Shown here one piece after another: positions 12,496 through 58,456 of a DNA stretch of 64,000 nt (position 1 is the stretch's first letter; every line of letters starts with the position of its first letter). Position numbers and translations under genes: made by a program. The stretch is taken from NCBI GenBank assembly GCA_965209055.1, contig OZ242374.1, forward strand, positions 1,152,001-1,216,000, given 5' to 3'. This stretch comes from Acidobacteriota bacterium. GTDB lineage: Bacteria; Acidobacteriota; UBA6911; RPQK01; JAJDTT01. The notes under the pieces were generated by a model. That model was not told where the DNA came from and did no database searches. It saw only the letters and a program-made list of their open reading frames with translations.

Positions 12496-15400
12496 CTATC
12501 GACTCCAATCCTCCTCCGCCGGAATCCCGCGACTCGTCAGCACTTCCATTCCCGGCTCCACCGCCAACGCGGACACGGCATCGACCCCGCTCCCGTCCCC
12601 TGCCGCCGGACCCCGAAAAATCCCCCGGATCTCCCCTGTCCGCGGATCCCGCAGGATGCTCACCGGCCGGTCGGTCTCCTCATCCAACCTGGCCGACCCT
12701 CCCGGCCCCGACAGCGTGATGCCGGCCAACTCGCCGGCCCATCCGGCCCGGACGGGCAGAACAAACGCGAACGACGACCTCCCGTCCCCGTCGGCCAGCT
12801 CCGGCATGGCGAAGCTCAACGAAAACAACTCCTCCCCGTCCCCATCCTTCCCCGTAATCTCATACTCCCCGCCGGACCGCGGAAGCCGCGCCGGAGCATC
12901 CACCACGAACGCCGGCTCCAGGTACGGAGTCCCGTCGGACCCGACGCCGCCCCAAAGCAGGAGGCTCTTCGCCGGCGCCGCCACCAGCGCGGACCCCTCG
13001 GCGCTGCCTGCGGCGTACAAGCGGTAACGGAGCGCGTTGGTGAAGTGATAAGCGCCGATCCACTGGGCCTCGGTGCGGCAGTAGGCCATCAGATCCGGCC
13101 AGACCGGCGGAAACACCCGCCCAGGCTCGATGAGATCGTATCCCCAGTCGCCGATGGAACCGTCCATCTGCGGAAACGCCGGATCCAGCGCGGCCGGCGC
13201 GCCGCAGGGCGCATGGGCCAGGCTCAAGTTGTGGCCCAGCTCATGCGCCATGATCACCGGATGGGGTATGGAGAAACTGATCAGGCCGGGTCGTTGGCCC
13301 AAACCGGCGAGACCACCGGTGAACTCGCCTCCAATCGTGCCCATGTAGTACCCACCAGCCCCTTCCATGGCATGGATGATTGCGGTTTCGCCGAACAGCG
13401 ACACGGGGTCGTTGGTCGAGGTCGACACGGGCGCATGGGCCTTGACGTCGAGTTCCTTGATGGGCAGCAGCGCCCGTGTCTCCTTGAGCAGGGGATGGCC
13501 CCCGGGGTCACGGGCCATGCCTTCGGCCAATTCCACGATCGACGAATCCGGATTCTCATCCCATAGGAATGGAATCACGGTCAGATCGAAGACCGGCATC
13601 GTCCGGACGTCGACCGCCAGGCGGCCGCTCTCCGGGATCCGCTTCGTCACGCCCGCATCGGGACCCGGCGTTCCCTCCGGGTCGACGTCGATCACCATCT
13701 CCAATCCCGGTTGCACCACCGAACCGGGCACCAGAACGTTGGCGGAGGCGTTCAGATCCCCTTTGTAAAACTCTCCCGGTATCGGAACCGGCTTCCCCGG
13801 AATGTCCACCACGTGCGTCATCGTCCCGTTCCGATAAAAAGTGGCCCGGACCGGAGGGAGATCCGACCCGGTCCCGCGGTCCGGTTCCACGAACACCCGG
13901 AGCAGGGCTTCCTCTCCCGCCACCAGCGGCACCGGGAATTCTCGCGACTGGACGGCCTGAGTCAGGATCACGTCCGGCGGATCGCCGGCGCCGCAGATCC
14001 CGATCCGCCGTTTCCAGACGCCGGACAGCCAATCCTGAAACCCGGCGTCCGAAGGCGCGCAGAGGTTCGCGCCGTGGGCCAGAAGTTCCTCCAGCCGGCC
14101 CAGATCCGTCAGCCGGGCGGGCAACGCTCCGGTCATCCCGCCGTTATTCGAGAGCACGATGCTGCGCAAACTCTCCAAGCCACCGAATTCCGGCGGCACG
14201 GCGCCCGTCAGTTCATTGTCCTGCATCCGAAGGAACTCCAGCCTGGTCAGTCTCCCCAGTTCCGGCGGGACGGCGCCCGTCAGGGCGTTCCCTTCGAACC
14301 ACAGCCCTTCCAGGTTCTCGAGGGCGCCCAGTTCCGGCGGGATGGAGCCGGTCAGATCATTCCAGGCGAGGTCCAGCGTCTTCAGGCTGGCGAGCGACCC
14401 CAACACCGCCGGGATCGTTCCCGTCAAGCCGTTGGCCCGGAGCCACAGGCTCTCCAGGTTGGCGAGTGCGCCGAGTTCCGGGGGAATCGGGCCGGACAGG
14501 GAGTTTCCCCTGATCCACAAATTCCTCAAGTTCGTGAGCGAGCCCAACTCCGGCGGGATGGAGCCGGTCAGGCCGTTCCCGTCCAGGTTCAGGTCCGTCA
14601 GGTTGGCGAGCGACCCCAACTCTGCCGGGATCCCTCCCGTCAACATGTTGCCGAAGAGCCGCGACGTCTCCAGGTTGGAGAGTGCGCCCAGTTCCGGCGG
14701 GATCGGCCCGGTCAGCCGGTTGTAGTTGAGGTTCAGGTGGATGAGCTCGGCGAGCGAGCCGAGTTCCGGCGGGATGGGACCCGTCAAGGCATTGTAGCCG
14801 AGATTCAGATCCGTCAAGCGGGTGAGCGAGACCAGCTCCACCGGGATCGTTCCCGTCAAGTTGTTGTTCGAGAGATACAACGTAACCACGCGCCCGTCGT
14901 CGTCGACTCCGACGCGGCGCCATTCCTCCAGGGGACGGTCCGTCATCCAGTTATCCCGCTCGGTCCAGTGCGGACCCCCGGTCGCATCGAACAGCACCGA
15001 CAGGATTTCCCGGTCCGACGGAGGCGGACAATCCGTGCCTGTCCCCTCGTGAGACGGTATGCCGCTCATCCACGCCCGGAACGATTCCCCGGCCGGGACA
15101 CAGAGATCGGTGTCCGCGTAGTGGAAGTCCTGAAGCGAAGTGAGTGAAGACAGGGACATGGGCAGGCGGCCGGAGAGGGCGTTGCCGCCGATCCTCAGCT
15201 CGGTCATCTGCCGCAAACTCCCCAAGTTGCCGGGAACCCGCCCCTCCAGTCCGTTGCCGGCCAGGTCGAGCGCCGTGACCCGGCCCTGGGAATCGACGCT
15301 GACGCCGTGCCATTCTCCCAACGTTCCTTCTCCGCGCCACCCGTCCGAGTTCGTCCAGTCCGGGCCGCCGGTGATTTCGAAGAACGCCTCCAGCACCGCC

Positions 15401-18330
15401 CTGTCCGACTCGTTGCAGTACGCCCTGCCGTGAAGCACCTCGATTTCGCTCGACCAAGCCGTGAAATCGGGGCTTCCGGGTATGCAGAGACCTGCGTTCC
15501 TTTCAATCCGGAACTCCTCCAGGTCCATCGCCAAGAGGCTTTCCGGCAGCGGTCCGGTCAGGCGGTTCCAGTCCAGAAACAGGAACCGCAGTCCGGCAGC
15601 CGACCCCAGTTCAGTTGGAACCGGTCCGGTCAGGCGGTTGAGGCGTAGAGACAAGTTCCACAGCTTGGCCAGCGCACCGAGTTCGGGCGGGATCGCATCC
15701 GTCAACTGATTGCGGGAAAGCCACAAATGCTCCAATTCGGCGAGCGAGCCCAATTCCGGCGGGATCGAGCCCGTCAGTCTGTTGCGGTCGAGTCTGAGGG
15801 TATTCAAGTTGGCGAGATCGCCCAGTTGAGGCGGAATCGAACCCACCAGAAAATTGTTCTGGAGCGACAATTGCTCCAGTTTGGCGAGAGCGCCCATGCC
15901 TGGCGGGACGGGACCGGTGAGGGCGTTGTCGCTCAGGTCGAGGGTCCTCAAGTTTGAAAGTGAATTCAGCTTCACCGGAATCGGGCCGGTGAGGAAGTTG
16001 CTCTGCAGGCTGAAAGACGTCGCCTCGGCCAGTGAACCGAGTTCGGGCGGGATCGGCCCCGTCAGGTTGTTTCCATTCAGACCGAGGCTCGTCAGGTTGC
16101 CGAGGGACCCCAGTCCCGGTGGTATCCGCCCGGAGAGGTGATTGTCGTTGAGACTGAGAAGTTCCAGGTTGGCGAGCGAACCCAGGCCGGACGGGATCGG
16201 CCCCGTCAGGGCATTTCCCCCGAGCTCCAGGGTTTCCAATCTGACGAGGGACCCCAGTTGAGGCGGGATCGGCCCGGTCAACTCATTGTTCCCGAGCGCG
16301 AGAGACGTCAGGTTGACGAGCGAACCCAGTTCCGCCGGGACCGGTCCCGTCAGGGCATTGCCGCTGAGATCGAGGGTCGTCAGGTGAGTCAGGGCGCCCA
16401 GTTCCGGCGGGAACTCGCCCGCCAGCCCATTGTCCCTGAGGACCAACCGGGTGACGCGCCCCCCGGCATCGACATCCACCCCGTGCCATTCCCCGAGCGG
16501 ACGGCCGGTCCCCCAGTTCCCGCTGTCGGTCCACCCGGACCCGCCGGCGAACTCGTAGAGCGCCGTCAACGCGGCCTGCTCGGAAACCACCACCCCCACC
16601 GTGACCGACGCCGTCTGCGTCCGTCCGACGGCGTCGCGCACGGTGATCCGATACGTCGTCGTGGCCCGCGGCGACACCGGCCGCGATCCCGACGCCGGCA
16701 CCGCACCGATGTCCGGCGTGATCTCCGCACCCACCGCGTTCGTCGAAGACCAGGTCAACGTGGCGCTCTCACCCCAATCGATGGAACCCGGCGAAACCGA
16801 CAGCTTCACCGTCGGGGGAGGCGCCACGCCTCCGCTGGCCCCGTCTCCGTCCATGACCCGCACCGCCGGCACCGACGAGAGCGAATGGCTCGTCTTTCCG
16901 AACCGCAGTCCCAGTGGAGCGAATTGCGAATCGTCCTCGCTTCGAAGGAACAGCAGACCCCGAAAGTCCGCCAGGAACCCCGTATCCACTCCTTCCGCGC
17001 CGAGCCATTCCGGGAGCGTTCGCGCCAGTTGCCGAAAGTTTCCGTGGTTGATGAACACCCCCTCCAACGGGTCGTTCCCCTCTTCATCCCGAACCCGTAG
17101 CTCCACGGTCGAAGCGGCGTCCGGTTTGAAGATGGCCACTCCGGCGCCGATCGCCGGCGACTCCTCCACGAACAGGGCGAACTGGCTTCCCAGCTCCACC
17201 GGTTGCACGCTCACCTCAACACCCGTCCCGGCCTGCCGGTAGGTCAACAACCCGCTGACCGCCGCCGACTCGGACTCCACCTCGATCCAGCCCCGCCGGA
17301 TCGCCCCGGCGCCGGCGCTCTTCAGCACCCGGCTGCCCAACGACGGAATCAGGAACGCCGGTTCCACATCGAACAGATCCCGGACCGGCCGGCCCTCCTC
17401 GTCGAAGACTTCCACGATCACCGACGCAGAGGCTTCCGCGGCGATGTTGCTGAGCGCCAACTGCACCGACCAGCCGCTTCCGTCCACGTAGTCCGGAAAG
17501 TAAAGGGTCGTCTCCGTCGGTTCCTGCGCCTCGTCCCGGATCGCCGGCACCGACGAGAGTGATTGGTTCCGCTTTCCGAACCGCAGCCCCAGCGGAGCAA
17601 ATCTCGACTCGTCCTCGCCACTCAGGAACAAAAGACCCCGGAAGTCCCTCAGGGATTCCCGGTCGATCCCCTCCACGTCGAACCATTCGGGCAGCGTGCG
17701 CGCCAACTGGTGAAAGTTCCCGTGGGACACGATCCCCCCGTCCAGCGGGTTGTTCCCCTCTTCGTCCCGGACCCGGAACTGGATGCTCGACGACGCCTCC
17801 GGTTTGAAGACCGCCACTCCCGCTCCGACTTCGTCCGTCTCCTCCACGAACAGCGCGAAACGCCCGCCCAGCCCGGCCGGCTCCACGCTCACCTCGATCC
17901 CCGTCGTTCCCTCCTTGTAGGTCAACAGTCCGCTGACCGAGTCCGCACGGGCGCGGACCTGGATCCAGCCGCGCCGAATCTCCCCCGCGCCCGAGCTCCT
18001 CAAAACCCAGCTGCCCAAGGCGGGAATCTCGAAAGTCAAACCCGACTCGAACAGATCCGGTACGGGCCGGCCCTCCTCGTCGTAGACCTCAACCACAACC
18101 TCGGCTCCCGCATCCGGATCGACATTGCTGAGCGCCAACTGCACCGACCATCCGCCACCGTCCACATAGTCGGGAAAGTAGAGAACCGTCTCCTCCGCTT
18201 CCTGATTCTGATTCCGGATCGTCTCCCGGACTTGGAGTTGGGCCTTCTCCGGCCCCTCGGCAGGCGACTGACTCGAAAACGAGGCCGCTAAAAACAAAAA
18301 GGCAAACAACGGAACCAAAATCTTCCTCAT
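12496..18330 (-). CDS. Giant secreted LRR protein with duplicated N-terminal surface module and C-terminal zinc metalloprotease
   Basis: Signal peptide; two LYFPDYVDG.GWSVQLALSN modules; many 24-aa LxxNxLTGxIPxELGxL repeats; HELGHNLSLAH. Confidence 0.88.
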   Translation of the reverse strand: MRKILVPLFAFLFLAASFSSQSPAEGPEKAQLQVRETIRNQNQEAEETVLYFPDYVDGGGWSVQLALSNVDPDAGAEVVVEVYDEEGRPVPDLFESGLTFEIPALGSWVLRSSGAGEIRRGWIQVRARADSVSGLLTYKEGTTGIEVSVEPAGLGGRFALFVEETDEVGAGVAVFKPEASSSIQFRVRDEEGNNPLDGGIVSHGNFHQLARTLPEWFDVEGIDRESLRDFRGLLFLSGEDESRFAPLGLRFGKRNQSLSSVPAIRDEAQEPTETTLYFPDYVDGSGWSVQLALSNIAAEASASVIVEVFDEEGRPVRDLFDVEPAFLIPSLGSRVLKSAGAGAIRRGWIEVESESAAVSGLLTYRQAGTGVEVSVQPVELGSQFALFVEESPAIGAGVAIFKPDAASTVELRVRDEEGNDPLEGVFINHGNFRQLARTLPEWLGAEGVDTGFLADFRGLLFLRSEDDSQFAPLGLRFGKTSHSLSSVPAVRVMDGDGASGGVAPPPTVKLSVSPGSIDWGESATLTWSSTNAVGAEITPDIGAVPASGSRPVSPRATTTYRITVRDAVGRTQTASVTVGVVVSEQAALTALYEFAGGSGWTDSGNWGTGRPLGEWHGVDVDAGGRVTRLVLRDNGLAGEFPPELGALTHLTTLDLSGNALTGPVPAELGSLVNLTSLALGNNELTGPIPPQLGSLVRLETLELGGNALTGPIPSGLGSLANLELLSLNDNHLSGRIPPGLGSLGNLTSLGLNGNNLTGPIPPELGSLAEATSFSLQSNFLTGPIPVKLNSLSNLRTLDLSDNALTGPVPPGMGALAKLEQLSLQNNFLVGSIPPQLGDLANLNTLRLDRNRLTGSIPPELGSLAELEHLWLSRNQLTDAIPPELGALAKLWNLSLRLNRLTGPVPTELGSAAGLRFLFLDWNRLTGPLPESLLAMDLEEFRIERNAGLCIPGSPDFTAWSSEIEVLHGRAYCNESDRAVLEAFFEITGGPDWTNSDGWRGEGTLGEWHGVSVDSQGRVTALDLAGNGLEGRVPGNLGSLRQMTELRIGGNALSGRLPMSLSSLTSLQDFHYADTDLCVPAGESFRAWMSGIPSHEGTGTDCPPPSDREILSVLFDATGGPHWTERDNWMTDRPLEEWRRVGVDDDGRVVTLYLSNNNLTGTIPVELVSLTRLTDLNLGYNALTGPIPPELGSLAELIHLNLNYNRLTGPIPPELGALSNLETSRLFGNMLTGGIPAELGSLANLTDLNLDGNGLTGSIPPELGSLTNLRNLWIRGNSLSGPIPPELGALANLESLWLRANGLTGTIPAVLGSLASLKTLDLAWNDLTGSIPPELGALENLEGLWFEGNALTGAVPPELGRLTRLEFLRMQDNELTGAVPPEFGGLESLRSIVLSNNGGMTGALPARLTDLGRLEELLAHGANLCAPSDAGFQDWLSGVWKRRIGICGAGDPPDVILTQAVQSREFPVPLVAGEEALLRVFVEPDRGTGSDLPPVRATFYRNGTMTHVVDIPGKPVPIPGEFYKGDLNASANVLVPGSVVQPGLEMVIDVDPEGTPGPDAGVTKRIPESGRLAVDVRTMPVFDLTVIPFLWDENPDSSIVELAEGMARDPGGHPLLKETRALLPIKELDVKAHAPVSTSTNDPVSLFGETAIIHAMEGAGGYYMGTIGGEFTGGLAGLGQRPGLISFSIPHPVIMAHELGHNLSLAHAPCGAPAALDPAFPQMDGSIGDWGYDLIEPGRVFPPVWPDLMAYCRTEAQWIGAYHFTNALRYRLYAAGSAEGSALVAAPAKSLLLWGGVGSDGTPYLEPAFVVDAPARLPRSGGEYEITGKDGDGEELFSLSFAMPELADGDGRSSFAFVLPVRAGWAGELAGITLSGPGGSARLDEETDRPVSILRDPRTGEIRGIFRGPAAGDGSGVDAVSALAVEPGMEVLTSRGIPAEEDWSR

Positions 18331-18384
18331 TTCAATACTCTCGACATCAAGACTCTCCCCTGGGAGTATCCATGTTGCAAGGGG

Positions 18385-18690
18385 TGGGTTCTCATCGGTG
18401 ATTCCATCCCGGGTCGTTAGTCAGTGAGGTGTCCGGTTTCCTGTTGGCATGTGATCTGTCCGGTTCACTGGGCGCGGATACGCCCTGGGGAGCCTCGGGT
18501 CAAGCCTACGGCTCCTCCGCTTCGCTGCGGCCCTTCGGGTGACCCGACGCTCCCCAGGGCGTGAAGAGCTTTCAAGGCCGTAAGCAAGCTTCCGGCCAGG
18601 CCTGACCGGAAGTTCTACAGATCATTCCTCGGGGGACCCGTCACGCCCCCTTTCCTCCTCATCTCGCTCCGTCGCTTCAGCAGACCACAC
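18385..18690. mobile_element. Putative 306-bp non-autonomous insert (MITE-like) within the IS110 3' end
   Basis: Flanked by GGGG direct repeats; repeated TGTCCGGTT (18430, 18457); 14-bp perfect stem 18480-18562; terminal IR weak. Confidence 0.45.
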
Positions 18691-19624
18691 GGGGCGCTTC
18701 GGGCAACCAGGTGCGGTCCTGACTCACCAGGGTGTTGGCTAGGACGATGAGCTTGCGCATGACGGCGACCAGGGCCACCTTGCCGGGCTTGCCACGCCCG
18801 GTCAGTCTCCCATAGACCTCGGCCAGGTCGCGGTTCCAGCGCAGGGCGGCCACCGCCGGCATGTACAGGAGCCGTCGCGCCCGCGCTCGTCCGCCCCGGA
18901 TGAAGGCCCGTCCCTGCCAAGCCCCCGACTCGCGAGGAACGGCGGCCAACCCGGCCAGACTGGCGACGGCCTTACCGCTCAGGGTGCCCAGCTCCGGCAT
19001 CTCGGCCAGTAGACCCGCGGCGGTGGTGGCCGCGATCCCGGGAATGGAGGTCAGGATCTCCCACTTGCGCGCCCGCTCCGGATCGGCCGCGATCAGTTGC
19101 TGTATTTTTCGGTCAATGGCCTTCGCCTGGCGCTCGAACAGGTTGATCTGGGTCTGGTTCTGCCGCTTGGGCAGGGGATCGCGCAAATGGGCGCGGCGGT
19201 TCAGCGCGGCCGTGCGCTGGCGCATCAGCGCGTCCCGGCACCCCTGCAGTTCCTGGAGCCGGCGTTGCGTCTTGGACGGCGCCGGGGTCCGGCGCGGATC
19301 CAGGCTGGCCCCCATCTGGGCCAGCATCCGGGCGTCTACGGTGTCGGTCTTCGCGCGGCTCCCGGTCGCCTGAGCAAAACACCGGGCCTGCCAGGGATTC
19401 ACTCTCGACAGCGGCAGCTTCGCTTTCCACAGCGCTTCCTCGAGGTTCCGGTGATAGGGGCCGGTGGCCTCGTAGGCGACGCACTCGACCGGAGTTCCGA
19501 TCCAATCGATCAGCGCCCGGAAGCCGGCCGGGTCATTGTCGAACCGGGCGGATCGGCCGTCGGCCAGCCGGTGGGCGTCCAGGTGCGCTTTCGAGATGTC
19601 GATGCCTACGGTATGCTGTTTCAT
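18677..19624 (-). CDS. IS110 family recombinase/transposase
   Basis: VGIDISK, YEATGPY, AKTD.VDA (DEDD) and SIPGI...AGLAAV.RESG motifs. Confidence 0.95.
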   Translation of the reverse strand: MKQHTVGIDISKAHLDAHRLADGRSARFDNDPAGFRALIDWIGTPVECVAYEATGPYHRNLEEALWKAKLPLSRVNPWQARCFAQATGSRAKTDTVDARMLAQMGASLDPRRTPAPSKTQRRLQELQGCRDALMRQRTAALNRRAHLRDPLPKRQNQTQINLFERQAKAIDRKIQQLIAADPERARKWEILTSIPGIAATTAAGLLAEMPELGTLSGKAVASLAGLAAVPRESGAWQGRAFIRGGRARARRLLYMPAVAALRWNRDLAEVYGRLTGRGKPGKVALVAVMRKLIVLANTLVSQDRTWLPEAPRVVC

Positions 19625-19726
19625 CTTTCCGGTCTCCTATGCTTGTCATTCGGGCCTTGATGCCCTCGTATCCATTCAGGACATCGGGAAAGACGGTGGC
19701 CGACCTTACTCCACATCCGGATCTAA

Positions 19727-20915
19727 GGAAGGTCTGATTAAGTCGAGTCAGCGTTCTGCACGATAATTCTTCCATCATCACTGCATGGAGGATAGATGAT
19801 GTCGCAACGAACGTTCGCAGATCTGGAATACGACGGCAAGAAGCGGGTGACCCGTCGGGAGAGATTTCTGGCCCGGATGGACCGGTTGATTCCATGGGAG
19901 CAGTTGGAAGCCCGGATTCGGCCCGTTTACCCGAAAGCGGGACGGGGACGGCGTCCCTACCCGCTCTCGACGATGCTTCGGATCCACTGCGTGCAGCTGT
20001 TTTACAACCTGAGCGATCCGGGGATGGAGGATCTGCTCTATGAGGTGGAGTCGGTGCGGCGGTTCGTGGGCCTGAAGCTCACGGGGCCGCTGCCGGACGA
20101 GACGACGATTCTGAAATTCCGTCATCGGCTGGAGGAGCATGGTCTGGGGGAGGCGCTGTTCGAGGAGATCGGTTCTCACCTGCAGCGGCAAGGCCTGCGG
20201 CTGAGCCGGGGGACGATCGTGGACGCGAGTATCCTGGCGGCGCCTTCCTCGACCAAGAACAGGGAGGGGGCGCGGGACCCGGAGATGCATCAGACGAAGA
20301 AGGGAAAACAGTGGTATTTCGGAATGAAGGCCCACCTGGGGGTGGACGCCCAGACGGGGGTGGCGCACACGGTGGTGACGGCGCCGGCTAACGAGCATGA
20401 CGTGACGCGAGCCGGTGAGTTGCTGCACGGCTCGGAGTCTCAAGTTTGGGGGGATTCGGGATACCAGGGAGTGGGAAAGCGGTCGGAGAATCGAGATCGG
20501 CCGGTGGATTGGCAGGTGATGATGAAGCCGGGGAAGCGTTGGCGGCTGCCACCGGAGAGTGAGGCGGCGTTGGCCGAGCGGCGCAAAGCGTCGGTTCGGG
20601 CCAAGGCAGAACATGTATTCGGGTACCTGAAACGGCATTTCGGCTACGCGAAGGTGCGCTACCGGGGGCTGGCGAAAAACACCCAACGGATCTATTTGCT
20701 GGTGGGGTTCGCCAATCTGATGATCGCCGAGCGCTCTGGCGTGAACGCCTGATCCGGGCGCGGGAGAGGTGCGTCGAGATTCGGGGAATCAGTCTGAGAA
20801 TGGGGGCACCCAGAGCCTTGCCAGGGTGGTACTCCTCATAATGAAGGTTTGGACACCGCAAAGCCGAAACAATAACGGCTCTCACGTCCCTTGAATCGAC
20901 TTGTTCAGACCTTCC
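19727..20915 (+). mobile_element. IS5-family insertion sequence, 1189 bp
   Basis: TIRs GGAAGGTCTGATTAAGTCGA / TCGACTTGTTCAGACCTTCC; CTAA target duplication at 19723-26 and 20916-19. Confidence 0.95.
19796..20752 (+). CDS. IS5 family transposase
   Basis: PDETTILKFR, GTIVDAS, RDPEMHQTKKGKQWYFGMKAH, GDSGYQG, RAKAEH. Confidence 0.96.
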   Translation: MMSQRTFADLEYDGKKRVTRRERFLARMDRLIPWEQLEARIRPVYPKAGRGRRPYPLSTMLRIHCVQLFYNLSDPGMEDLLYEVESVRRFVGLKLTGPLPDETTILKFRHRLEEHGLGEALFEEIGSHLQRQGLRLSRGTIVDASILAAPSSTKNREGARDPEMHQTKKGKQWYFGMKAHLGVDAQTGVAHTVVTAPANEHDVTRAGELLHGSESQVWGDSGYQGVGKRSENRDRPVDWQVMMKPGKRWRLPPESEAALAERRKASVRAKAEHVFGYLKRHFGYAKVRYRGLAKNTQRIYLLVGFANLMIAERSGVNA

Positions 20916-21323
20916 CTAACGGTCAGCGGCGACACGGTCCAGCCACCGCCGCCCGGGCCGCTCATGAGCGGCCCGGGCGGACTTATTTAAACAGACAAGC
21001 GGCGACTTTCCTGTCGCCAGGGGAGCGAAGCGACCCCATCCCGCCAATTTTTCCGTCGCCGACCGCGAGAGTCCGCGAGGGAACATTCCAACCCCTCCTC
21101 TTCAACACCGCCCCCGCTCCCAACATTTTTCTTCGTTACTTTTTCTTCTTCCCCGTTATGGAATGGGTAGAGTTCACGAAACCAGCTCATGACGACCGCG
21201 ACGAGAGGCTCGACCGCGAACACCCCTGAACCCTTTCCGCATTCCGTCGTCCGGTCTCCGGAACTCCGAAGAGGTTCCCCGCCGGGACAGGAACCGATAT
21301 AATTCCAACTCTGGGAAAAACAG

Positions 21324-49025: not shown

Positions 49026-49439
49026 GGGGGAAAGAAAAATGCAGCCGGGTGAACCGAAGTTCAACGAACCGCCGTGGCAGCCCTCCCAACCGCAAAGTCA
49101 TTGTCGCATTTGCCGAGAATGGCTGTCAAATTTGTTTCCAATTCCGGCTCCGCCGATGTCACACGCTTGTCCTTCCTGGCCACTTGGGGCCAGGCTCCGT
49201 CTTATTCAACGACCGAAGGCATGAAACCGCGAATATGCTTTCGGGAGAGCTCATCACCGTGCTCTCCGGTGCGGACCGAGAACCGCGTGAGGGTGTCCCG
49301 GTGGGCCCCGGCCGGCCGCTCAACCGAACGGATGGAGCAGCCCGCCGGGAGCATTGGGACCTACCGCGCTGAGTCGCCATGAAGACCGGCGACAGGAAAA
49401 CCGCCGCTCCTATCGGCGACAGGAAAGTCGCCGCCGCTC

Positions 49440-50372
49440 CTACCAGGTGGCGCTGTCTCGGACCAGCGGGGGCTTCCCCACCTTCACCCGGCGGGCCCCG
49501 ACGCTATCGAGGCGGTCGAGCCGCGGCGCCCCCTCCAACGCCTGGAGGTCGGCGTCGAAGTACTCGAACCAGGGGAGCCCGGCTTCGGTGTAGTCGGCGG
49601 CGGTGGGCGGCTCATACGGCGGCGCGTATCCGGTCACCGTCCGGTATTGCCCGCTGTTGAGGAGGTGGACGAAACAACGTGAGCGGACGTCCCGCTCCCA
49701 GGCGGAGAATCCGTAGTCGTCGGAGTAGACCTCCTGGCGCATCATCCCGCCGGGCGCGAGGCCCATTTCGCTATCCGGCAGCGCCGAACAATAGATGGCA
49801 TCGATTTCGTAGGAGTCGGGGACCCTTTCGGCCATCAGTCTCTCGTACCGCGACGCCTTCATCGGATAGACGACGAACTGCAGGCCGCCATGCTCCGCGG
49901 CTCCCGTCAACTGCTCCTCGGCCGTATAGCCCTGCCCGAGGGGCATGGCGACAAACTGGCGGATCAATCCCTTGCGCACGCAGAAGCCGTCGAGCCAGGG
50001 CTGATCCGGGATCACGACATAGTCCTGGGGCCGCCGGTGCAGCTCGTTGCGGAACGATTGTCCCGTGACGGCGTCGACTTTCCCGGTCGATACCTTGACG
50101 GCCATGGGGTACGAGCCACCGAAAGAAATCCAGAGCGCCTCCGCCTGGTACATGGGCATGAAAACGCCGCCATGATCGCTCCACCGTTGCGGCAGGCGAT
50201 GGGCATAGTCCTCCACGTGGTGCAACGGAAACACTCCCAGTCCCGGGGGCAGGGGATACTCACGGTCGTCATCCGGAATCCGCAGGGTCCTCGCAAACGA
50301 AATCGAACACCTCGCCTCCCGATGGACCTCCGGAAAGCTGAAAGCCAACGTATCGTGCCGTAGTTCAATCAT
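49440..50372 (-). CDS. Conserved hypothetical protein
   Basis: RTLRIPDD..YPLPPGLG.FPL, PMYQAEALWISF, QPWLDG, RQFVAMPLG; function unknown. Confidence 0.8.
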   Translation of the reverse strand: MIELRHDTLAFSFPEVHREARCSISFARTLRIPDDDREYPLPPGLGVFPLHHVEDYAHRLPQRWSDHGGVFMPMYQAEALWISFGGSYPMAVKVSTGKVDAVTGQSFRNELHRRPQDYVVIPDQPWLDGFCVRKGLIRQFVAMPLGQGYTAEEQLTGAAEHGGLQFVVYPMKASRYERLMAERVPDSYEIDAIYCSALPDSEMGLAPGGMMRQEVYSDDYGFSAWERDVRSRCFVHLLNSGQYRTVTGYAPPYEPPTAADYTEAGLPWFEYFDADLQALEGAPRLDRLDSVGARRVKVGKPPLVRDSATW

Positions 50373-57397: not shown

Positions 57398-58456
57398 TTG
57401 GCCGATTCTCCGAAACGCAGTAGGAAACTTGTTTCCGTCGTCGTCGTGAATTACGGCCGCGCCGAACTGCTGCGCGCCTGCCTGAAATCTCTCCTGGACC
57501 AGACCTGGCCCCGCCTGGAAATCCTGGTGGTCGACAACGGATCCCGGGACCACAGCACGGAAGTCGCCTCCTCCTTCGCGGACCGCGGAATCCGGCTTCT
57601 GGCCCTCACCGAAAACCGGGGTTTCGCCGCCGCCGTCAACCTGGGGGTCCGCCGGGCCCGGGGCGAACTGGTGGCCCTGCTGAACAACGACGCCGTGGCG
57701 TCACCCGAATGGGTCGAGCAACTGGTGTCCGGCCTCGACGCCTCGCCGGACGTGGGCATGTGCGCCTCCAAGATCCTCTTTTACGGGTCCGACGTCATCG
57801 ACAAGGCGGGCCATCTCATCTTTCCGGACGGGCAGAACCGGGGCCGGGGGACCGGCGAGCCGGACCGGGGCCAGTACGACCGGAACCGGGAGGTCCTGGC
57901 GGCGGACGGCTGCGCCGCCCTCTACCGCAAGGAAGTCCTGAAGCAGGCGGGCGGCTTCGACGAGAATTTCTTCGCCTACGCGGAGGACGCCGACCTGGGG
58001 CTCCGGGCCCGCTGGCTGGGCTGGCGCTGCCGCTACGTGCACGGGGCGGTGGTGCATCATCACCACTCCTCGACGCTGGGTCCCTACTCGCCCCGGAAGA
58101 TCTACTGGGTGGAGCGGAACCGGATCTGGCTGGCGCTCAAGAACTTCCCCCTCCCCCTCCTGCTCCTGAACCCCTTTTTCACCATCTATCGTCTGGCCTG
58201 GAACCTCTGTGCGGCGCTGCTCCGCCGGGGGCCCGCCGGCAACTTCCGCCGGGAAGGCTCGCTGTGGCTCCTGCTCCGGGTCCAGCTCCGGGCCTGCCGG
58301 GACGCCCTCACCGGCGCCGGCCCGATGCTCCGCGAACGCCGCCGCATCCGGTCCACCCGCAAGATCGGAGACCTGGAATTCTGCCGCCATCTGTTCCGCT
58401 TCCGCATCTCCGCCTGCCGCCTCGCCTTCGGGGACAAGGAGCGGCGACATCCTTGA
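57398..58456 (+). CDS. Glycosyltransferase family 2
   Basis: VVVVNY, LLNNDA, GGFDENFFAYAED. Confidence 0.9.
   Translation: MADSPKRSRKLVSVVVVNYGRAELLRACLKSLLDQTWPRLEILVVDNGSRDHSTEVASSFADRGIRLLALTENRGFAAAVNLGVRRARGELVALLNNDAVASPEWVEQLVSGLDASPDVGMCASKILFYGSDVIDKAGHLIFPDGQNRGRGTGEPDRGQYDRNREVLAADGCAALYRKEVLKQAGGFDENFFAYAEDADLGLRARWLGWRCRYVHGAVVHHHHSSTLGPYSPRKIYWVERNRIWLALKNFPLPLLLLNPFFTIYRLAWNLCAALLRRGPAGNFRREGSLWLLLRVQLRACRDALTGAGPMLRERRRIRSTRKIGDLEFCRHLFRFRISACRLAFGDKERRHP

Follow-up and report, generated by a model that had tools for sequence, protein, structure and literature searches.

The question raised by this locus is how an insertion sequence (IS) of the IS110 family came to lie exactly at the foot of a hairpin resembling a repetitive extragenic palindrome (REP), and whether the instructions for that choice can be read from the element itself. 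The locus belongs to a 64,000-nucleotide stretch of an Acidobacteriota bacterium (GenBank assembly GCA_965209055.1, contig OZ242374.1, positions 1,152,001 to 1,216,000), called the window here, which lies within a 6.08-Mb single-contig genome. Positions are those of the window, and those prefixed C1 are genome coordinates. Reading the sequence and the open reading frames (ORFs) of 18200-21200 reveals two nested insertion sequences, an IS110-family element on the minus strand (18367..20999), made up of 1440 bp of its own sequence plus a nested IS5-family element and a 4-bp duplication, and the IS5-family element itself. A first-pass annotation of the window, made by reading the letters, had proposed that the outer element encodes a bridge RNA directed at the local REP. 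Our reading is that the element is an IS110-family bridge-recombinase IS with a putative bridge RNA, some 165 nt long and encoded in the left end, that is programmed to the foot of the REP-like repeat, and we put the probability of this reading as a whole at roughly 0.93.

The extent of the element can be read from three copies in the same genome. Two intact sister copies without IS5 (C1:218376-219815 and C1:4550362-4551801) differ from each other at 3 of 1440 bases; in the 1360 bases that lie on the gene's side of IS5 the window copy has 6 differences from one sister, and in the 80 bases beyond IS5 it has none, being identical there to copy c3. Similarity among the three ends exactly at 18367 and 20999. 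What is repeated at both junctions, in all copies, is only a short core, CT on the coding strand and AG as the window is written (18365-66 and 20998-99), so the first-pass observation of a duplicated AG core and a split REP stands. We count the core copy at 20998-99 into the element, and boundaries of 18365-20997 are equally valid. On the coding strand, the left flank of all three copies is a hairpin GGCGAC-N6-GTCGCCG, then CT, then the element, and the right flank is the element end ..CATGGATA followed by CT-CC. All three copies are therefore inserted at the identical 11-bp site GTCGCCG-CT-CC, at the 3' foot of a REP-like hairpin. In the window, the left half of the split target (21000..21025, minus strand) is the REP-like hairpin GGCGAC-AGGAAA-GTCGCC(G), with GTCGCCG, the left target, as its 3' arm, and the right half (18355..18366, minus strand) holds the right-target side and one 2-nt core, reading ..CTCCCCTGGG-AG on the plus strand and CT-CCCAGGGGAG on the coding strand; the CT-CC after the right end is also found in both sister copies.

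By the definition of Durrant et al. (PMC11208160), a 9-nt left target guide (LTG) is identical to the top strand of the left target (LT) plus core, and a 4-nt right target guide (RTG) is complementary to the core plus the right target (RT). Upstream of the recombinase gene we find strings for these and for the left and right donor guides (LDG, RDG), four in all. The LTG GUCGCCGCU equals the top strand GTCGCCG plus CT at 9 of 9 positions and the RTG GGAG complements CT plus CC at 4 of 4, both in all three copies of this genome; the LDG AUGGAUAC equals the right end ATGGATA plus C (8/8), and the RDG GACAAG complements CT plus TGTC (6/6). As the window is written, these are the matches first picked out by eye, and each of them holds: AGCGGCGAC at 20925-33 against AG plus CGGCGAC at 20998-21006, CTCC at 19709-12 as the complement of GGAG at 18363-66, GTATCCAT shared between 18366-73 and 19668-75, and CTTGTC at 19642-47 as the complement of GACAAG at 20994-99. 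The guides fit the published strand sense and lengths. Moreover, donor position 7 (A) has a possible partner in the U that follows the RTG, and target position 7 (G) in the C that follows the RDG, and in our reading these bases would fit the handshake positions of IS621. In 2000 dinucleotide shuffles of the left end, a match of the 9-mer length is reached 22 times, of the 8-mer 20 times, of the 6-mer 190 times and of the 4-mer always. The 9-nt and 8-nt matches are individually unusual and the short ones are not, and by themselves they suggest guides without settling the matter. The case rests mainly on where the guides sit in a conserved fold and on how they covary with their targets.

The fold was obtained by both single-sequence and consensus folding of the 182-nt left end of an intact copy. 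It begins with a 14-bp 5' stem-loop, continues with a 12-bp helix closing a large internal loop, and ends with a second helix closing an internal loop that contains a small GGGC/GCCC apical stem. Mapped onto the minus strand of the window copy, the 5' half of the bridge RNA (20920..20980) would contain the 5' stem-loop (20949-80), the 5' arm of the target helix (20936-48) and the LTG (20925-33). The 3' half of the target-binding module (19694..19726) would contain the RTG (19709-12), the handshake UA (19707-08), the 3' arm of the basal helix (19694-19705) and half of the apical loop, and the donor-binding module (19624..19693) the LDG (19668-75), the apical GGGC/GCCC stem (19652-65), the RDG (19642-47) and a handshake at 19640-41. 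The helices proposed from the letters, GGTGGC..GACC (19696-19705) with GGTC..GCCACC (20936-47), and GGGC/GCCC at 19652-65, recur in this fold. In the donor module, the Shine-Dalgarno AGGAG (19634-38) and the start-codon A are both base-paired within the basal helix. Over 14 distinct sequences, standard pairs fill 98.5% of alignment cells and 8 of 47 pairs have changes on both sides, in an alignment fitted to a covariance model built from 12 of the 14 sequences, which favours the structure. None of 500 shuffles reaches 8, slid controls give at most 1, and compensatory pairs occur in all four of the main helices. Rfam contains no family matching the left-end RNA. If transcription is assumed to start at the G 7 nt after a -10-like hexamer, the LTG falls at positions 50-58, the RTG at 78-81, the LDG at 115-122 and the RDG at 143-148. 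The bridge RNA of IS621 is described with a 5' stem-loop at 1-33, a target-binding loop at 34-98 and a donor-binding loop at 110-177, with its LTG at 50-58, its RTG at 77-80, an 8-nt LDG, and handshake dinucleotides right after the RTG and RDG (PMC11208158).

The predicted target is one subfamily of a REP-like repeat. The 11-mer GTCGCCGCTCC has 62 further, free exact copies in the genome, while 11-mers of the same composition have a mean of 11.9 and a maximum of 44, with 0 of 200 reaching 62. Perfect 7-bp hairpins followed by CTCC number 215, often in tandem arrays, and their arms fall into the subtypes ACCGCCG (134), GTCGCCG (35), GCCGCCG (23) and ATCGCCG (23), which bears out the first-pass suggestion that guidance is to a subfamily of REPs. 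The GT subtype accounts for 62 of 565 NN-CGCCGCTCC sites, yet all three insertions are in it, a result with a chance of (65/568)^3 or about 0.0015 by our own arithmetic. The element of this genome is thus set to a minority subtype, and the commonest guide among its relatives matches the majority subtype. Among other REP feet in the window that had been named as matching, 33991 (C1:1185991) and 43982 (C1:1195982) are exact 11-mer targets, and only the stretch 49420-49440 fails to be exact: it reads GTCGCCGCCGCTCC, with GCCGCCG before CT, one mismatch. Beyond those named, one more exact 11-mer is at 58438. As to whether a hairpin as such is preferred, 3 of 3 insertions in this genome are in hairpins, but so are 35 of the 62 free exact sites, a comparison that has no power.

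The last point matters for a different account, in which the protein reads the shape of the REP hairpin, in the manner of REP-associated transposases, and the loop matches are REP debris rather than guides. This account gains from the left target being always the 3' arm of a hairpin in this genome (3/3), from the 4-nt and 6-nt matches not being rare by chance, and from a preprint on ISPpu10 in which a target stem-loop is reported to add specificity (bioRxiv 10.64898/2026.03.19.712850). What it has to explain is the behavior of relatives. A scan of one genome per species finds 20 related loci in four Acidobacteriota metagenome-assembled genomes, with recombinases 81-88% identical, and these together with the two sister copies make the 22 intact elements compared here. 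They have five LTG variants, GTCGCCG, ACCGCCG, ACCGACG, CACGCCG and GACGCCG. The 7 nt left of the core equal the LTG of the same element in 20 of the 22, and the other 2 (L014 and L016) have one mismatch, at a core-distal position, both being in GCCGCCG. When guide classes are paired with target classes in all 120 permutations, only the true pairing gives 2 or fewer mismatches. One genome contains two LTG classes, each at its own kind of site. The right end could be located in 19 of the 22 loci, and the complement of the RTG equals core plus RT in 17 of these 19. Within an RNA scaffold that is nearly invariant among the 22 elements, variation is concentrated in the LTG and the apical loop, where 18 of 28 columns vary compared with 16 of 137 elsewhere (Fisher test, for which 16/140 was used, p ~1e-8). 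Hence natural guide variants go with changed targets, and the copies collected, the three of this genome and the relatives, are in cognate targets, not at the unrelated ones that would have refuted the first-pass annotation. A strict test of relatives for perfect-arm hairpins (8/22) was dropped because it under-counts imperfect hairpins. For the hairpin-shape account, the difficulty is that the conserved fold leaves the matching strings unpaired, within its internal loops, that the left end offers them no hairpin partner, and that these strings change with the target across five classes and a sixth subtype outside REPs, where a protein-only model predicts otherwise. We regard that account as very improbable, and prefer guidance by the RNA, to which the REP hairpin may add a second layer of specificity.

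The sixth subtype just mentioned is a diverged one with the same donor ends, present as 3 copies in one genome and 4 in another (L044, L048, L052, L057, L059, L061 and L063). All 7 are at GGTATG-CT-CCCTC in a different repeat, one bounded by terminal inverted repeats and not a REP. Their loops contain GTATGC and GAGGGAG, the latter being the complement of CTCCCTC, matching in 7 of 7 copies. Since these loops match the target of the subtype, the same scaffold has been directed to a new site, its left guide being shorter and its right guide, at 7 nt, longer. The landing repeat is about 165 bp, with CAGCCCGTGG.. inverted ends and a 4-bp duplication of TTAC/TTAA type, and resembles a miniature inverted-repeat transposable element, so that one mobile element would be serving as the landing pad for another. 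Two of these copies, L061 and L063, have a length of 1588 nt compared with 1516 in the others, and in both the opening part of the left end is repeated in tandem over 72 nt (at about 1092-1165), the joint reading ..GCACC-CT-TGTCTG...

Three of the relatives in the main set, L012, L013 and L028, have an extra stretch of about 660 bp in the left end (about 1112-1770 in L013), running from CT-TGTCTG to TTGCAAAGCTGGAGA-CT. It contains a second module like a bridge RNA, with ATGGAGAC at the LDG position, and no gene. This stretch looks like a gene-less derivative of a related element placed before the true bridge RNA; the idea that the extra module is itself the bridge RNA of these copies was dropped, as the true one was found further downstream. 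In L013, the second module with ATGGAGAC is followed by an end-like ..CTGGAGA-CT, which is a hint of donor covariation.

The recombinase gene (18677..19624, minus strand) is intact and encodes 315 aa with a DEDD RuvC-like domain and a Tnp domain. Matches to PF01548 (DEDD_Tnp_IS110) and PF02371 (Transposase_20) score 77.7 and 68.1 bits, both above cut-off, and NCBIfam NF033542, named IS110 family RNA-guided transposase, scores 205.2 bits against a cut-off of 140. The only sequence relatives in the Protein Data Bank (PDB) are ISCro4 (E = 8.2e-38) and IS621 (E = 1.2e-36), aligned over residues 3-297. In the alignment to 8wt6, D9, E52, D94, D97 and S233-G234 are opposite IS621 D11, E60, D102, D105 and S241-G242, whose roles are taken from Hiraizumi et al. 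2024 (PMC11208158); the chain numbering of 8wt6 is offset by 2 from that of the paper, as inferred from a chain length of 328. The predicted catalytic DEDD and Ser residues are kept. The two sister proteins are identical and full length, and the window protein differs from them at M174I and L188W. The first-pass assignment to IS110 bridge recombinases is thus upheld by the domain hits, by NF033542 and by kinship with IS621 and ISCro4, and by every defining feature testable in sequence the element is a real member of the family.

The right end deserves attention for another reason, that in some members of this superfamily the RNA is at the other side of the gene. The IS1111 group has a 3' RNA and sub-terminal inverted repeats, and if our element were of that type, with a seekRNA downstream of the transposase, the right non-coding end (18367..18676, minus strand, 310 nt) would be the functional RNA. 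This end is indeed long, with a strong hairpin. It ends in the terminal bases ..TTGCAACATGGATA, contains the left-donor ATGGATA and a -35-like TTGCAA at 18375-18380, and is conserved in every relative in which a right end was located. The hairpin is a palindrome with 23-nt arms (18480..18562), outside the bridge RNA and present or absent among relatives. L023, L029 and L030 are otherwise intact and yet lack exactly that stretch of about 75 nt, and an 86%-identical copy is found elsewhere in the genome (C1:2368165-2368230). Because it is missing from three intact relatives and has a copy elsewhere, it looks like a separate small palindromic insert rather than part of a functional RNA. Sub-threshold matches of Rfam mir-939 to this palindrome were taken as chance. 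Furthermore, no inverted repeat, sub-terminal or otherwise, links the two ends of the element among the 25 longest inverted pairs checked, and all four guide strings are upstream of the gene. We consider an IS1111-type arrangement to have almost no chance of being right, and return to the left-end bridge RNA.

How the parts would work together follows the published IS110 scheme. The LTG would pair with the bottom strand and the RTG with the top strand at CT plus CC, so that the two would jointly define GTCGCCGCTCC, the 11 bp found at the 3' foot of one REP-like subfamily. The donor loop, with AUGGAUAC and GACAAG, would recognise the joined circle ends ..ATGGATA-CT-TGTCTG.., and the DEDD/Ser recombinase, bound to both loops, would exchange strands at the CT core, inserting the circle with no terminal repeats and no duplication beyond the core. 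Expression from a promoter rebuilt at the circle junction, formation of the circle, and recombination are the steps that we infer.

The putative junction promoter was read by eye. The left end starts (20981..20999, minus strand) with the core CT, the right-donor TGTCTG and a -10-like TGnTTAAAT (hexamer 20985-90), and joining the right end to it would put TTGCAA (18375-80) 17 nt before TGnTTAAAT. In IS621, the -35 is reported in the right end and the -10 in the left end (PMC11208160, PMC11208158). By the criteria of the promoter tool, there is no sigma-70-like promoter site in the integrated copy, a result that fits a junction-dependent promoter. In addition, the REP hairpin and the T-rich bases that open the element together look like a terminator facing into the element (L003 1401-1430; window 20990-21018, minus strand), and this site might shield the left end from read-through. 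An integrated copy with no promoter-like site and a terminator-like start fits the weak expression from integrated loci that is reported, along with low copy number, for the IS621 bridge RNA (PMC13626964).

Several points weigh against this picture. On the target side, the 4-nt RTG match is not unusual by itself (2000/2000 shuffles), L023 and L027 carry the RTG GCAG rather than GGAG, which disagrees with their right flank, three of the 22 loci (L015, L024 and L026) yielded no right end, and in three classes the ninth LTG base is G or C, where U would be needed to pair with the core T. The relatives are close kin, so that copy counts overstate the number of independent events, for which the units are the five-plus-one guide classes. 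On the donor side, the ends are invariant in all full elements, which leaves the donor-loop assignment with no covariation test and resting on the 8-nt match (20/2000), the 6-nt match (190/2000) and the architecture. The junction promoter is modest, TTGCAA and TTAAAT each agreeing at 4 of 6 positions by eye; the -10 lacks the A of position 2, for which the TGn extension makes up in part. Finally, the signal from RNA libraries consists of a few contigs of 37-68 nt from a relative in one sponge metatranscriptome, which cover the 5' stem-loop and target-binding module, with none over the gene; they are at most a hint and cannot show transcription. The recombinase gene has no cover in the RNA run X19.

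A guide that is correctly read could still be a record of the past. In this account the family is a fossil, the guides recording past insertions and none of the three copies moving now. There are only three copies against 62 free exact targets, integrated copies have no promoter-like site, and one copy has already been struck by IS5. Against that, the copies differ by only 3/1440 and 6/1440, the two sisters encode one and the same full-length recombinase, and on either side of IS5 the window copy agrees with a sister throughout the RNA region. The RNA model is found in 6 of the 15 genomes of the family, including our own; other genomes of the genus have it in 5 of 8 and those of the sister genus in 0 of 6, with up to 13 model hits in each of the related genomes. 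Low copy number and weak expression when integrated are, as said above, reported for IS621 as well. Sequencing data were consulted as Logan contigs, with relatives below 93% likeness left out. The joint of the IS5-less form (19722->20916) turns up in contigs from 3 of the 3 DNA-type runs compared, which the sister copies would lead one to expect. No contig joins 18366 to 21000, as an empty site would, and none has the junction form of a circle, which a fossil family would explain, yet contigs drop rare forms and this is evidence neither way. Joints in X8 (18366->19727, 19096->19724 and 20915->21000) were discounted, having sides below 30 nt and being likely repeats or other organisms. The runs that hold the stretch are labelled as sponge and coral-reef metagenomes, and the host lineage is a sponge- or coral-associated Acidobacteriota, with no sign of a pathogen or of resistance in its surroundings. 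A fossil family seems unlikely.

The window copy is a special case among the three in having been interrupted. The IS5-family element is 1189 bp (19727..20915, plus strand), with a transposase gene at 19796-20752, inverted ends GGAAGGTCTGA... and a CTAA duplication (19723-26 / 20916-19). Its transposase is of the DDE type, with PF01609 and PF05598, and NF033581 scores 334 bits. The 1189-bp unit occurs in the genome in nine copies at 100% identity, eight of them flanked by a 4-bp YTAR direct repeat, and the boundaries of IS5 are therefore secure; to judge by sequence, it is recently active. Besides these there are a further 15 copies of a 93%-identical IS5 variant, matching over the first 1028 bp, and two IS5 copies have identical flanks, which points to a duplicated region.

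The insertion point of IS5 is TTAG in the apical loop of the target module, between LTG and RTG, and it puts 1193 bp between the two target guides. The covariance model R1 scores the two RNA halves of the window copy at 49.1 (5') and 98.6 bits (3', scored with the donor module), compared with 202-203 for intact copies. With LTG and RTG parted by IS5, the window copy is predicted to be incapable of forming a target-binding loop by itself, and transcription from its putative junction promoter would run into IS5. The first-pass claim of a fully decodable bridge RNA consequently applies to the sister copies, which naturally have exactly the IS5-deleted sequence that had been reconstructed by removing IS5, and does not apply to the window copy, whose target-binding loop is split. 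The window copy does retain the recombinase gene, the donor-binding module and both ends. For IS621, the bridge RNA is reported to act in trans (PMC11208160) and the two loops of one synaptic complex to come from different RNA molecules (PMC11208158), and on that basis the sisters could in principle mobilise the window copy with IS5 as cargo. The window copy could be movable only with a target-binding loop supplied by the intact sisters.

The pairing of the Shine-Dalgarno and the start-codon A within the donor-module basal helix suggests a further idea, that the left-end transcript is both guide and recombinase leader, each molecule being either used as bridge RNA or translated. We hold this as doubtful, a tentative model from the fold. 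If true, the dose of recombinase would be tied to guide supply, IS5 in the window would cut off the junction promoter and the target module while leaving the donor basal helix intact, and the window would contain a natural split-guide copy, moving with its IS5 cargo only with the help of a sister.

Some observations on the surroundings can be added. A 1944-aa ORF on the minus strand (12496-18330) has its start codon 36 nt from the right end of the IS110 element, and the insertion, now 2.6 kb with IS5, parts it from its former upstream region. An outer 9-bp inverted repeat, CTCCCCTGG / CCAGGGGAG at 18355-18363 and 21017-21025, surrounds the split REP hairpin and would enclose it in an uninterrupted site; it is absent at both sister sites. 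Elsewhere in the genome, a distant IS110 paralogue (L039, C1:2084501-2085536) is 66-73% identical in parts, with a weak R1 match of 25.5 bits just upstream, and was too decayed to use, its gene being broken into frames of 209 and 262 aa. At C1:1111403-1111590 there is a lone relic that resembles the element's right end at 69-84% identity and has no palindrome region.

To judge how ordinary the element is, it can be set beside the systems already described. The closest described example is IS621 of E. coli (Durrant et al. 2024, PMC11208160; Hiraizumi et al. 2024, PMC11208158; PDB 8wt6), with which it has in common the pair of domains, the DEDD and Ser-Gly catalytic residues, the CT core, an RNA encoded before the gene in the left end, an 11-bp target at a REP, the order of 5' stem-loop, target-binding module and donor-binding module, the 9-nt LTG, 4-nt RTG and 8-nt LDG, and the handshake directly 3' of RTG and RDG. 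The putative -35 in the right end and -10 in the left end would be distributed alike, with the hexamers here at 4/6 each by eye. About 30% of aligned residues are identical, also by eye. The differences are that the target here is GTCGCCG-CT-CC and that of IS621 is ATCAGGC-CT-AC (PMC11208160), that the linker between modules is nearly absent here and about 11 nt in IS621, that the RDG is one contiguous 6-mer here and discontiguous in IS621, that the donor basal helix here extends to the Shine-Dalgarno and the start codon, and that the host here is the sponge- or coral-associated lineage. The ISCro4 transposase (PDB 9t56) is the best sequence relative in the PDB, and the comparison there is of the proteins alone. 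ISPpu10 of Pseudomonas putida, another IS110 element, is alike in its target, which the preprint cited above describes as having a GC-rich stem-loop 5' of the paired bases; at our site the 3' arm of the REP hairpin doubles as the left target. A point of difference is the diverged subtype, which uses a different repeat. Elements of the IS1111 and seekRNA type belong to the same recombinase superfamily and have RNA-guided site choice, with the difference that the RNA here is 5' of the gene. Acidobacteria recombinases are present in the tree of Durrant et al. (PMC11208160); our target-binding loop was not found among the listed bins of their supplements, where the element may nevertheless be present.

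The mechanism was published in 2024, and the element is a correctly read, ordinary example of a bridge-RNA system, one whose bridge RNA can be decoded from raw sequence alone. The picture of how IS110 elements work is unchanged. What the lineage adds is that, in these Acidobacteriota, one scaffold and one set of donor ends have been naturally retargeted at least 6 times, to five variants of the REP arm and to one unrelated repeat, for which the left guide is shorter and the right guide has 7 nt. For the engineering of bridge recombinases, this gives a small natural series of tolerated guide changes, which includes an unpaired ninth position of the LTG and insertions with 1 mismatch at two core-distal positions.

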